The notes under the pieces are model-generated. The model saw only the letters and a program-made list of their open reading frames with translations, searched no databases and had not been told where the DNA came from. A stretch of DNA of 64,000 nucleotides from Raja brachyura (taxonomy: Eukaryota). The translations under genes and the position numbers were made by a program. Where the stretch lies: the NCBI GenBank assembly GCA_963514005.1, contig OY740814.1:11842001-11906000 (forward strand). The letters are read 5' to 3'. Of this stretch, positions 32,650 to 64,000 are shown piece by piece (positions within the stretch are counted from its first letter, which is position 1; the number at the start of each line of letters is the position of its first letter).

Positions 32650-34075
32650 GCCATTCATAAACCTTTCCCCTGAAATCCCCTTTAAAACCTCTTAATATCG
32701 CCCTCCATTTTTGAATAATGTGCCATAGGAAATAAGTGCACCATGCCTCTTATAATTTTATATGCCTCCAACAGGTCTCAGCCTCATTCACTCCAGGGAA
32801 AATAAACTAGCCTATCCCATCTCTCCCCACAACTGTCCTCCAATCCAGGCAACGCCCTGGTGAATCTGTACAGGAAAGAACTGCAGAAGCTGGTTTAAAT
32901 CGAAGGTAGACACAAAATGCTGGAGTAATTCAGCGGGTCAGGCAGCATCTCTGGAGAGAATGAATGTGACATTTCGGGTCGAGATCTACTGACTCGTCGA
33001 AGGGTCTTGACCCGATTGTCACCCATTCCTTCTCTCCAGAGATGTTGCCTGACCTGCTGAGTTACTGCAGCATTTTGTGTCTACCCTGGTGAATCTTCTC
33101 TGCACCCTCACGAGTGACATCATTTTCTGCCAATAGTGTGGAGACCAGAACTGTGCACAATCACGAACATTCCTGAATATCTTATATTAGCTATAAATGT
33201 TCTATCCCTATTTGACTTCTCAAAATACTTCACTTTGCAATTGTCAGGATTAAGTTTCATCTGTCAGCACTGTAGCCTTAGACAACCTTCCTCAGCATGC
33301 ACAACATCACTAACTTTCATGTCATCTGCAAACTCACTATTCTCCTACATTCATTTCTAAGTTGTTAATATGCATCACAAACAACAATGGCACCAGCACA
33401 TATCTCTGCAGTACACCACTGGTCACAGACATGCAATCAGAAAAGCAACCCTCCACCACTACCCTTGGCCTATTTTTGATCCAATTCTCCTACTTCAAGA
33501 ACTTAACCTGAGGAACAACCTCATCCCTTTTTATAACAACATTGAAATCCCCCCTCCCATCATTGACCTTCCATCTATTGCCCAGTTTCATTTCTTAGGT
33601 AGAGGTTCAATACTGTCCCATCTTGAGTAATACTCTCTACGTATTGTGTCAAATAAATTCCTTGCATGCACTTAACAAATTCCATCCAAGCTAAGGCAAT
33701 CCCAGTCAATACTGGAAATTTAAAATTCCCCATTACCATACCCCTATCATTCTTATATCTTTGCATGATTTGTTTACATACCACCTGTTCTTCTCATTCC
33801 CACTGTGACTAGAGTATAATCCAGCAAAGTGATTGCCCTTCACTTTTTCCCAAGTTCCACTCCTACAGCCTTGTTGGATACTCCCTCCAGGATATCCTCT
33901 AGCTTCCTCTGGTACCGCCATTATGTTCTCCCTATAATAGTGCGAATCACTCTCTTTCCCATCTCTCTCTTTCACACCTGAAATTTCTATTTCTATAAGC
34001 TGGAACATGAAGCTGCCAGTCCTGTCCTTCCTGACTATAGTTGTGATAACATCATAATTCCAATACTGATCCACA
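32650..34075 (-). mobile_element. Decayed CR1 LINE pieces (endonuclease and RT)
   Basis: VMGNFKFP...LTQYVESITQDGTVLNL endonuclease motif; RT remnants. Confidence 0.75.
32868..33083. mobile_element. Fold-back (palindromic) dimer of the Penelope/hammerhead terminus
   Basis: 13-bp TSD CCCTGGTGAATCT; about 85-bp inverted arms ggtagacacaaaatgctggag... / ...cagcattttgtgtctacc. Confidence 0.88.
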
Positions 34076-48100: not shown

Positions 48101-48446
48101 ATAATTTTCATGTAAAAACACACACACACACACAAATACCATTGATCTCACATCCTAATTCCTGCCCTGCACAATAGATACAGATTCCAACTGTTGTCTT
48201 GTATATCTCAAACACATTTGCCTCTATTAATTAATACAAAGTATTTTAAGTTTTCTTTACTTCAATATACAAAACCCAGAGCATGGTTTAGCAAATTTGT
48301 AGCTGCAATCCACTTAGTCAACTTGAAATCAAACTTATACTTATTATTTTGGAATCTCTGGACAAAAAAAACTGCACCAAGACACTCGCAGTCTGCTATT
48401 TTTTTTTTGATTTTCTCCCAAGGCAGTCATCATGTACAAAAGCTTG

Positions 48447-48544
48447 GGGGTTACACAAAAAGCTGGAGAAACTCAGCGGGTGCAGCAGCATCTAAGGAGT
48501 GAAGGAGATAGGCGACGTTTCGGGTCGAGACCCTTCTTCAGACC
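48447..48544 (-). mobile_element. 98-bp insertion carrying an intact minimal hammerhead ribozyme
   Basis: 11-bp TSD ACAAAAGCTTG (48436-48446 and 48545-48555). Confidence 0.88.
48511..48544 (-). ncRNA. Minimal type I hammerhead ribozyme motif
   Basis: Minus strand GGU-CUGAAGA-A-GGGUC-UC-GACCC-GAAA-C-GUC-GCC: CUGANGA and GAAA core, stem II, palindromic ACGU stem III, GUC triplet, 3-bp stem I. Confidence 0.75.
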
Positions 48545-49649
48545 ACAAAAGCTTGATCATTCATCTTCCAGGTCTTCATGTCCCTCTCCAGCCATAATCG
48601 TGAGACTGGCCCTAGCTTTGGTAAAAATGTTGAATTATACAAGTAATTGCATTTGAATGCAGCCTGACCACAAATCCATATTCCTTGGCCATTTTACTTT
48701 GTCTAGCAGCAATCGCAGATGTTAAATGGGGGCTCTATTTTCACTCCTAGAGTTCTTTATAACCTCTCCCCAAACTCAAAAGTACTCATTAATTAAGGAT
48801 CTTGGCGATTTATTTATTCCATTGTATACAATGCTGAACTTGTGTGCATAGGTCTATATACTAGATTTGTCTGGAATTTTGTGTAATTCTTCATGTACCT
48901 TTTATTCTTCTTAAGTATTATTTCATCTCTTTATTTCACTATCAATTTCAATACAGGCAGTGCATTTCTGTCACCTGACCAAAACATTCAAAAGGTCCTT
49001 GTTTCAATCTATAGGCACTCAACTTGGTATATCACTACACTCCCTAATTAGTTCTATCAGATTGCTTTTGACCTATCAGATGTTTTTTTAAATTTAATTC
49101 ACTTCCACAATGTCATGGAGTTTTTAAAGCTTAATTTGGATATTACGTCCTCAGAAAGGTCAAGGAGATTGGTGAGACAAGTTCTATTTGTCTGTCACTT
49201 ACTAAATTTGTTACACAAAGATACTCCTTATCCTTGTTCCAAATGAAATCTATTTTTACAGTTCCTAATCTAAAATTGTTTAGTATATGATCTTTCCAGA
49301 AATTGAATTTGTTTCAAACCAGTAAAGTTGTGTGTTCTTTGACTGTCTCAAGGTGATTTTCCTTTAGTGAATGTCGAGTACTAATCAGATTCAGAACTTT
49401 GCGTGTTAAGGCAGGAATAGGATTTTGGGAATGCTAATGTTGATTTAATTGTGGAAAATTTAGAGAAAGAGTTTTGGTTTTGGTGAGCTTAAATTAAACC
49501 TTTCTAATTCAAATTCTGTGGACACTAAGAGTATTTCTTTTCAGCTGCTCCTACTTATGGTATCTTCCTGAATATTGTACATCTTTGTTAGAACAGCACA
49601 ACATTCCATTATAGCATAAAAGCACATAACCAGTGCAAATTTAATAATG

Positions 49650-52221: not shown

Positions 52222-53850
52222 TTGGAAGTAACTCAGCTGGACGTGCAGCATCTCTGGAGAGAAGCAATGCGTGACATTTCGGGTTGAGACCCTTCTTCAG
52301 AATAGTCAGGAGAAAGGGAACTGAGCGATGCAGACAGTGTTGTAGAGAGATATAGAAGAAATGAATGAAAGATATGCAAAAAAGTAACGATGATAAAGGA
52401 CACAGGCCATTGTTAGCTGTTTGCTGGGTGAGAACAAGAACCTGGTGCAACTTGGGTGGGGGTGGGATGGATAGAGTGGGAATGTAGGGGTTACTTGAAG
52501 TTAGAAAAATCAATATTCTTATCACTGGGTTGTAGGCTACCCAAGTAAAATATGAGATGCTGTTCCTCCAATTTGCATTTAGCCTCACTCTAACAATGGA
52601 GGAGGCTTAGACAATAGACAATAGACAATAGACAATAGGTGCATGATTAGGCCATTTGGCCCTTCAAGCCAGCACTGCCATTCAATGTGATCATGGCTGA
52701 TCATCCCCAATCAGTACCCCATTCCTGCCTTCTCCCCATATCCATTGACTCCGCTATTTTTAAGAGCACTATCTAGCTCTCTCTTGAAAGCATCTAGAGA
52801 ACCTGCCTCCACCGCCCTCTGAGGCAGAGAATTCCACAGGCTCACCACTCTCTGTGAGAAAAAGTGTTTCCTCTTCTCCGTTCTAAATGGCTTACTCCTT
52901 ATTCTTAAACTGTGGCCCCTGGTTCTGGACTCCCCCAACATTGGGAACATGTTTCCTACCTCTAGTGTGTCCAAGGCCTTAACAATCTTGGGTGGGAAGG
53001 GATGAGTTAACCAGGGAGTTGCGGAAGGAACGGTCTCTACGTAAGGCAGAAACGGGTGGAGATGGGAAGATGTGACTCATGGTGGGATCCATTGGAGGTG
53101 GCAAAAATGTCGGAGGATTATGTGTTTTATGCGACGGCTGATGGGGTGAAGGGTAAGGACTAGGGGACTGTTCCTGTAGCGACTATGGGGAGTGGAGCAA
53201 GGGCGGAGCTGCAGGGTACCGAGGAAACACATGTGAGGGCCTCATCTATGATGGAATAGGGGAACCCCCTTTCCCTAAAGAATGAGGACATCTCGGATGT
53301 CCTGGTATAGAACACCACATCTTGGGCACAGATGCAGGAAAAACGGTGGGAAGAAGTGTAGTTGAGATAGTTGTGGGAGCCAGTTGGTTTGTAGTAGATG
53401 TCAGTTGATAGTCTATCTCCTGTGATGGAGACCAAGATCAAGAAAGGGGAGGGAGGTGTCGAAGATGGTCCAAGTGCATTTGAGTGCAGGATGGAAATTG
53501 GTGTTGAAGTTAATAAAGTCCATGAGTTCTGCATGCGTGCAGGAGGTAGCACCGATGCAGTGGTCAATGTAATGGAGATGGAATTTGGGGATAGGACCAG
53601 TGTATGCCTGGAGCAGGGATTGTTCAACCTACCCTACAAAGAGGCAGCCATAGCTCGGCCCCGTGCGAGTGCCCATAGCTACGCCTTTGATTTGGAGGAA
53701 GTGGGAGGAGTAGAAGGATAAGTTGTTAAGAGTGAGGATCAACTCTGCTAGGCAGAGGAGAGTTGAGGGAGATTGGCTGCTTCTGCGGTCGAGTAAGAAA
53801 CAGAGGGCTTTAAGGCCTTCCTGATGGGGGGTGGAAGTGTAAGTGGGCAT
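52222..53850 (-). mobile_element. Penelope-like element (RT and GIY-YIG remnants), interrupted by CR1
   Basis: QIKGVAMGTRTGPSYGCLFVG, TDIYYKPTGSHNYLNYTSSH, KLEEQHLIF; terminal ribozyme-like motif at about 52271-52300. Confidence 0.9.
52610..52988 (-). mobile_element. Young CR1 LINE 3' end nested in Penelope
   Basis: (ACAATAG)n tail; MFPMLGESRTRGHSLRI...FFSQRVVSLWNSLP. Confidence 0.92.
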
Positions 53851-60849: not shown

Positions 60850-61170
60850 ATGGACACAAAATGCTGGAGTAACTCAGCGGGACAGGCATCTCTGGAGAGA
60901 AGGAATGGGTGGCGTTTCGGGTTGAGACCTTTCTTCTTGATCCGAAACGTCACCTATTCCTGCTCTCTCTCGAGATGCTGCGGGGTGGAAGATTGCAACC
61001 TTCACGTGGTCCGCCCTGTTTCGACTAATGCAATCAACTCGACGTGCACAAACGGAAGATCAATTAGAGCAAGTTGTCCAACAACTTTAGGCTGTGCACG
61101 CCACACGAAAGAAGAAGAAGAGATGCTGCCTGTCCCGCTGAGTTATTCCCGTTTTTTTGTGTCTATCTTC
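60850..61170. mobile_element. Fold-back Penelope-terminus dimer interrupted by a short retroelement
   Basis: gacacaaaatgctggagtaactcagcgggacaggca and tgcctgtcccgctgagtta...ttgtgtc form inverted arms. Confidence 0.8.
60982..61119 (+). mobile_element. Short (GAA)-tailed retroelement, copy 2
   Basis: 10-bp TSD GAGATGCTGC; GGGGTG start; (GAA)n tail; matches 14068-14188. Confidence 0.88.
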
Positions 61171-63151: not shown

Positions 63152-64000
63152 TGTTGTAAAGAAGGAACTGCAGATGCTGGAGAATCGAGGGTTACACAAA
63201 AAGCTGGAGAAACTCAGCGGGTGCAGCAGCATCTAAGGAGCGAAGAAGATAGGCAACGTTTCGGGTCGAGACCCTTCTTCAGACTGGTCAGGGATCAGGG
63301 AAACAAGTGATATAGACGGTGATGTGGAGAGATAAAGAACAATGAATGAAAGATATGCAAAAAAGTATCGATGATAAAGGGAACAGGCCATTGTAAGCTG
63401 TTTGTAGTGTGAAAATGAGAAGCTAGTGCGACTTGGGTGGGGGAGAGATAGAGAGAGAAGGAATGCCAGGGCCCGAGGGCTGAGGGAGAGGGGAAGGGGA
63501 GGAGGCAGCCTGGGTTAACAGAATTGAGAAAATTCAATGTTTAAGTCCAGAGGATGTAGACTCCCCAAGCGGAAATATGAGGTGCTGTTCCTCCAACTTG
63601 CGGTGTTGCTCACTCTGGCCGTAGAGGAGGCCCAGGACTGAGAGGTCGGATACGGAATGGGAGGGGGAGTTGAAGTGCTGAGCCACCGGGAGGTCGGGTT
63701 GGTTATTGCGGACCGAGCGGAGGTGTTCGGCGAAACGATCGCCCAGCCTCCGCTTGCTCTCACCGATGTAGATCAGCTGGCATCTGGAGCAACGGATGCA
63801 GTAGATGAGGTTGGAGGAGGTGCAGGTGAACCTCTGTCGGACTTGGAAGGATTGCTTGGGTCCCTGAAAGGAGTGGATGGGGGAGGTGAAGGGACAAGTG
63901 TAGCATCTCTTGCGGTTGCAAGGGAAAGTGCCCGGGGAAGGGGTGGAGCGGGAGGGAAGGGATGAATTGACAAGGGAGTTGCGGAGGGAGCGGTTTTTGC
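63152..64000 (-). mobile_element. Young Penelope-like element 3' part (GIY-YIG endonuclease and terminal ribozyme), runs off window
   Basis: Minus strand YIGESKRRLGDRFAEH and HRKLEEQHLIF motifs; hammerhead core at about 63252-63285 on the same strand. Confidence 0.92.

Follow-up and report, generated by a model that had tools for sequence, protein, structure and literature searches.

The 98-base insertion at positions 48447-48544 of the window, by which we mean the whole 64,000-nucleotide stretch of Raja brachyura contig OY740814.1 analysed here, is an end fragment clipped from a very common jumping gene and no stand-alone mobile ribozyme, as judged from its sequence and those of its relatives. 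Taken alone, the insertion is ordinary; single minimal hammerheads from truncated Penelope-like elements (PLEs), tails and inversions have already been described. At the family level, a small share of the sister copies start exactly at the predicted cut site of the ribozyme, and these starts are likely a fossil sign of ribozyme cutting in living cells.

Element positions are counted from +1, the A of CCAG upstream of the parent hammerhead, two bases before the U preceding the CUGA core. In this numbering the core begins at +4, cleavage is predicted between +31 and +32, and 48545 minus the element position gives the window position; the features are listed in Table 1. The preliminary description had reported a 98-bp insertion with a perfect 11-bp TSD, whose minus strand reads GGU-CUGAAGA-A-GGGUCUCGACCC-GAAA-CGUC-GCC plus 64 nt, and both readings are exact, ACAAAAGCTTG standing on either side. 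The sequence likewise bears out a type I minimal hammerhead whose helix III is palindromic and which has a bulged A. A Penelope origin and mobilisation, also proposed there, gain support from a protein-coding Penelope-like parent that matches the insertion at 96/96 bases. Templated bases make up 96 of the 98; the opening G and the closing C are extras at the junctions. The pLTR of a second locus, L183, differs from the templated part at one position (+45).

Table 1. Features of the insertion and of a long relative in the window. Strand refers to the element.
Feature	Position	Strand	Detail
Whole insertion, stub of a Penelope-like element	48447..48544	-	98 bp
TSD, left copy, 11 bp	48436..48446	+	exact 11-mer repeat ACAAAAGCTTG
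TSD, right copy, 11 bp	48545..48555	+	exact 11-mer repeat ACAAAAGCTTG
Templated part, parent +2..+97	48448..48543	-	96/96 identical to the L184 pLTR
Junction G, absent from the parent (A there)	48544	-	third helix I pair in the window copy only
3' end, +97 plus one extra C	48447..48448	-	inner of two family-wide 3' ends (+97, +132)
Inner 3' end +97 of the insertion	48447..48448	-	putative RT start; compare PMC11167929 (accessible part)
Predicted stem-loop immediately 5' of the inner RT start	48452..48484	-	fold
Minimal type I hammerhead	48511..48544	-	sequence against the descriptor of PMC4209133 (accessible part)
Hammerhead core CUGAAGA	48541-48535	-	bulged A 48534
Hammerhead helix II; GAAA; palindromic ACGU	48533-48522; 48521-48518; 48518-48515	-	
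Predicted cut site after GUC (+31/+32)	48513..48514	-	exact start of sister copies elsewhere
Long 5'-extended copy with tail, element -728..+129, broken off by the window end	63157..64000	-	

Assembled contigs of several sequencing runs were compared around the site, and none of those listed contains a joint that skips the insertion. In run X19, whose flanks differ by about 3%, the left-flank contig stops at the TSD with three further unplaced letters, which fits an empty allele. In run X20, possibly the assembly's own source, the contig over 48545-48860 shows no differences and starts exactly at the right TSD. This is as expected if filled and empty alleles coexist, and is a hint at most.

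By its motifs, the parent is an endonuclease-bearing PLE with a Neptune-type linker. It is about 4 kb long, contains RT and GIY-YIG, and the insertion is its ribozyme end. Following the sequence past the tail led to tandem units of 3,930-4,043 bp (L181-L185); the stretch after the tail has 577 exact matches genome-wide. The RT motif YLRYIDD, a DKG motif, a CX4CX2C linker and, at the C terminus, a GIY-YIG are found directly upstream of the same 97 bases. The locus L184 has a single open frame of 1,204 codons (L184:2353-5964) with RT and C-terminal GIY-YIG, as in EN+ PLEs; its first ATG lies at +167, a long Pro/His/Thr-rich stretch precedes the RT, and this copy carries no upstream ribozyme. The Pfam matches on the parent, RVT_1 (E 2.5e-4) and GIY-YIG (E 1.7e-3), are both below the curated cut-offs, with the motifs visible in the translation. 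A CX2-5CxxC linker between RT and EN is given as a Neptune clade feature in the accessible text of PMC8557442, and the translations contain it as C-X4-C-X2-C. The pLTRs from partial tandems, the adjacent inverted copies and the optional 30-40-bp tail of EN+ PLEs are also present, and the TSDs agree, with 11 bp at the insertion and 8-17 bp in short copies, although a strict exact search finds them in only 16/36 of these. A splice donor considered at +165 was rejected, as the sequence there is start codon context.

The family is very large. In the 2.7-Gb genome a pattern count finds 26,561 exact copies of the 36-base core, and the 3' anchor (a 35-mer) has 37,886 exact matches; the reversed controls give 0 in both cases. 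A BLAST search of the window with the 98-mer returned 24 hits, of which about 14 are near full length, with identities from 97% to 72%. Older head-to-head stubs of related subfamilies lie at window positions 32874-33080 and 60854-60981, the latter apparently interrupted by another inserted repeat. A long copy from a related PLE subfamily, older and decayed, with about 73-78% identity, is seen at 52227-53845, and LINE-like RT fragments are near it.

The preliminary description expected non-random ends at the ribozyme boundary and named random ends as the opposite outcome; the family clearly follows the former. The 5' ends were examined in 89 arms, i.e., exact 3'-anchor matches with enough flank in L031-L100, which belong to the first 100 matches listed on contig C1. 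Among these arms, 52 end at -8..+8, 26 further upstream and 11 inside (+9..+61), so that, base for base, ends are 31 times as frequent at the edge as in the next 242 nt and 17 times as frequent as in the inner 53 nt. With only the non-inverted arms the counts are 29 vs 4, with p ~1e-12 even without three doubtful arms of L070. These three edge arms are local duplicates, perhaps with another upstream sequence, and dropping them leaves the result unchanged, while the four edge arms of L082 represent two duplicated insertions. Inverted arms make up 32/89, and 23/52 of the edge arms are head-to-head. Genome-wide, only 8,840/26,561 cores (33%) continue exactly to -7; about two thirds are without upstream sequence. 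Head-to-head pairs, inversions and partial tandems all switch at this same front edge of the ribozyme. On the other side, copies end at about +97 or about +132, the 35-nt extension, known in PLEs as the 'tail', being present in 34/89 arms. The family is also present in four runs examined out of 24 listed, a set of assembled contigs mostly guessed to be RNA, and in these four joints recur at +1/+2; starts, strand and expression are not resolvable in such contigs. Among the 30 copies continuing past the tail in L121-L150, 24 break off at +185..+290, and the break-offs mostly rejoin the element's 3' part or the ribozyme edge. These breaks may mark a short RNA, or else the stretch of RNA that the protein shields.

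Position +1 holds an A in 20,104 of the 26,561 copies, a G in 3,731, a T in 1,709 and a C in 1,017. Thirty loci of the G class include nine inversions and three loci with a lone extra G like the window copy; others have GG, slippage or TSD microhomology. The G excess at the junction is therefore real but has several causes. A cap-derived G, considered as proof of the start site, is weakened by the many G's that reflect microhomology with the helix II palindrome or slippage, and by extra purines that also occur at +32, where no cap is possible. Splicing was also considered as the cause of the edge, given a pyrimidine tract and CAG. It was rejected, as templated bases upstream of the AG are retained in restarts and the 30 G-class copies have no upstream exon in common.

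We consider it probable that the insertion is a one-step stub, in which the RT started at +97, ran off at the 5' end of the RNA and the product was joined into a staggered cut. The RNA would begin at about +1, just in front of the hammerhead, and an RNP would nick the target with an 11-base stagger. The element's own RT would then start at the inner site, reach the RNA end (+1/+2) after 96 nt and add a base before the product is joined to the second nick. Priming of both strands would give head-to-head pairs and a jump of the RT from the RNA end would give partial tandems. The accessible text of PMC11167929 describes internal RT initiation at two sites with both strands primed, and that of PMC2377424 an internal promoter in the pLTR. 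The same RNA would offer a start site near each end, such that 5'-proximal starts yield stubs, while 3'-proximal starts at the downstream copy of the site, or jumps, yield long copies. The stub itself would be a dead end because the sequence beyond +97 is missing. In about 0.4-1% of events the apparent template would be the 3' cleavage product of the ribozyme.

If +1 were not an RNA end, the stubs could have arisen by ordinary 5' truncation, with the RT stalling at a structure or at a protein-bound edge. The ends are indeed spread over about 16 nt, often with TSD microhomology, and a hairpin is predicted in the parent at about -36..-1. However, the RT passes the whole hammerhead before stopping, and non-templated extras and repeated restarts cluster at the edge, together with head-to-head joins and jumps to the ends of other RNAs, as they would at a physical end, so we regard stalling as quite improbable. 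A solo pLTR could also result from recombination between two short direct repeats of a full-length element; a full-length insertion from +1 to +97 would collapse to exactly the same structure with one TSD. We give this origin very little credence. Elements with an upstream repeat are rare (577 exact past-tail matches, and 4/30 of those sampled run beyond 1.4 kb), whereas stubs with a divergence of about 1% number in the tens of thousands, and recombination cannot make the head-to-head pairs at the same edge (23/52 edge arms).

The preliminary description had taken the insertion for a separate non-autonomous retrozyme-like micro-element, and this part of it we do not retain. Such a retrozyme- or SINE-like family would have short masters whose transcripts the PLE protein copies in trans. 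It would account for the two thirds of cores without upstream sequence and for the sharp ends, the breaks of 24/30 past-tail copies at +185..+290, many restarting at the ribozyme, could reflect a short RNA species, and retrozymes have been reported as pLTR-derived (bioRxiv 10.64898/2026.07.22.740005, accessible part). The copies themselves speak another language. In 97 copies from L001-L100 (36 short, 25 inverted, 36 long), the mismatches to the reference in 92 nt are 1.2, 1.2 and 0.9 for the short, inverted and long classes, respectively; the classes are equally young and share variants. No private variants were found in 34 short copies of this sample, and the junction extras differ from copy to copy. 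The variant +45A is present in 7/34 short and 2/33 long copies (p = 0.15); its being commoner in short copies leaves some room for short masters. On their 3' side, the 36 short copies cross-match only in the local duplication L070 and in the pair L053/L079, which lies in similar flanks. A tail is present in 8/36 short copies, and a stub ending at +97 cannot template this tail to +132. The tandem arrangement of animal non-LTR retrozymes is absent, a single unit lying between the TSD copies, and instead of an independent non-coding lineage we find the end of a coding parent (96/96 identical). The bulged A is standard in PLE minimal hammerheads, according to the accessible text of PMC4209133, and counts against the separate micro-element as well. 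A separate retrozyme lineage is not seen, nothing in these sequences appears to set the short copies apart as a family that has a master of its own, and we judge such a lineage unlikely.

Returning to the one-step stub, the RNA end at which the RT would run off appears in a few copies to have been not at +1 but at the cut site. None of the 89 unbiased arms starts at +30..+34, so cut RNA is not the usual template. The minor class was searched with 35-letter patterns in which the first letter deviates from the parental one, which gave 275, 182, 375 and 230 matches genome-wide for starts at +30, +31, +32 and +34, respectively. The first 50, 50, 74 and 50 of these in chromosome order were classed, in which point mutants or small deletions account for 40, 40, 22 and 30, and inversions joining elsewhere for 8, 3, 12 and 14. 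Insertion events, counted by hand, are 2 in 485 Mb, 6 in 695 Mb, 28 in 470 Mb and 6 in 630 Mb, i.e., 0.41, 0.86, 5.96 and 0.95 per 100 Mb. The excess at +32, for hand-curated events and with +30, +31 and +34 as the only controls, has p 1.5e-10, or 1.4e-7 without arrays and head-to-head pairs and 6e-5 with TSD-bearing copies only. The +30 control has a pyrimidine instead of a purine as lead base, both it and the +31 control depend on a CpG being intact, and p is 8.7e-9 in the comparison with the two purine-matched controls. Among the 28 events are ten whose TSD is clear, three head-to-head pairs joined at +32 and three arrays. Scaled up, they correspond to about 160 events or 0.4% of the family, perhaps 1% with uncounted pyrimidine-led cases. 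A weak predicted 4-bp stem ends at +32, and a pause of the RT there is conceivable.

The arrays L205-L209 (G000:C1 ~74.835 Mb), L212-L215 (C1 ~117.725 Mb) and L329 (C2 ~55.272 Mb) consist of 61-63-bp units, each spanning +32 to a point shortly ahead of the inner RT start; L329 differs in its most 5' unit, which starts at the front edge of the hammerhead instead of +32. Together with L353, which has shorter repeats from the cut site, these loci contain 3-5 tandem units in TSD-flanked or inverted insertions. The arrays look as if a telomerase-related RT had copied one short template over and over. In four loci (L344, L350, L348 and L326) the copy starting at the cut site is preceded by an A-run. 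The piece upstream of the A-run is the element's own ORF in L344 and L350, and AATAAA is found 16 nt before the A-run in L348, which suggests jumps or ligation to A-tailed RNA ends.

Insertions start at the predicted scissile bond 6 to 15 times as often as at the control positions, in part as reiterated arrays, which points to cleavage that is real but rare. Nearly all copies were made with the hammerhead uncut, and it probably cuts in vivo rarely or late. We lean towards a broader reading, in which the genome would be a base-precise fossil record of PLE RNA ends, the main 5' end, with strong-stop-like copies that form the bulk of the family, lying before the hammerhead and a minor one at the cut. 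On reaching either end, the RT would add bases, restart at its inner site and so write tandem repeats, or jump to the 3' ends of other RNAs. If this holds, the record is in vivo evidence of cleavage by a minimal hammerhead with a 2-bp helix I, and the PLE replication cycle can be read from genome sequence alone.

The ribozyme itself has the conserved core, the bulge at 9/10.1, G10.1-C11.1 and the palindromic 15.2-16.2 of PLE minimal hammerheads, but helix I falls short of the typical 4-5 bp. It has two pairs in the parent, followed by an A-C mismatch; the third position is A/C in 148/226 motifs and G/C in 51/226. In these 226 motifs, a sample enriched for the subfamily of the window copy, pairs 1 and 2 are kept in 91% and 89% and pair 3 in 23%, the same helix II is common to 169/226, and GAAACGTC is found in 185/226. 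An Rfam scan of the insertion gave no hammerhead model at E<=5. The first 36 nt alone are predicted to fold into helices I and II. In the fold of the 98-nt RNA, the core pairs instead with +33..+47, at -21.6 vs -7.7 kcal/mol for the hammerhead helices alone. The whole-RNA fold has z = -0.49, and the stem-loop near the RT start is unremarkable per se. The hammerhead dimer of the 98-mer is about 18 kcal/mol above the best co-fold, in a model that scores junctions poorly. PLE minimal hammerheads are described as slow, dimer-requiring or protein-requiring (PMC4209133 and PMC11167929, accessible parts). Given this behaviour and the folding away from the hammerhead, a lone stub is unlikely to cut by itself. 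Thus, the cleavage after GUC envisaged in the preliminary description has indirect support at the family level from the genomic +32 signal, while self-cleavage of the window copy as naked 98-nt RNA, without protein help, is unlikely according to the folding model.

The family statistics bear on how PLEs copy at all, given an RT start near the 5' end of the RNA, and on whether the feeble minimal hammerheads of PLEs cut in cells. No published report of an excess of cut-site starts was found in the mostly open-access literature searched. The end statistics are a modest, testable addition and give exact ends to test.

The hammerheads that metazoan PLE pLTRs carry (Cervera and de la Pena 2014, PMC4209133) have the same core, a bulged base between 9 and 10.1, G10.1-C11.1 and palindromic 15.2-16.2. 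In the accessible text, most motifs occur singly and are 'probably related to truncated PLEs', with pairs on opposite strands, and helix I is typically 4-5 bp, with 2 bp in D. virilis as in the skate parent. That text states no in vivo evidence, whereas here sister copies begin at the cut site. In the Poseidon PAc element of Anolis carolinensis (Frangieh et al. 2024, PMC11167929), as probably here, two internal RT starts 30-40 nt apart result in an optional tail. Its accessible text further reports that both DNA strands are extended, uncut RNA is the main template, the ribozyme needs protein and no RNA-seq reads end at the cut site. An accumulation of 5' ends at the ribozyme edge, present here, is not described in that portion. 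Unlike in Poseidon PAc, the ORF here starts at +167, downstream of both RT start sites, and has a Neptune-type cysteine linker.

In Neptune-clade EN+ PLEs, the accessible parts of Craig et al. 2021 (PMC8557442) and Arkhipova et al. 2013 (PMC3846280) describe 5' truncation, partial tandems and an adjacent inverted copy, along with a one-sided tail, TSDs of about 8-17 bp and solo pLTRs, as here. However, 5' truncation here has a strongly bimodal pattern, in which one edge accounts for the majority of copies. Animal non-LTR retrozymes (PMC7229834; bioRxiv 10.64898/2026.07.22.740005; accessible parts) are likewise short, non-coding, related to pLTRs and equipped with a type I hammerhead, and like the insertion would depend on PLE proteins. 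They are tandem, with a mostly canonical ribozyme in each unit of about 170-400 bp, and form circular RNA. The insertion, in contrast, has one unit, a minimal motif and no lineage of its own. The minus-strand strong-stop DNA of LTR elements is a short cDNA that extends from an internal priming site to the 5' end of the RNA. The stub would resemble it in this respect, but differ in that the cDNA is primed on the chromosome and ends as an insertion, with no tRNA primer or integrase.
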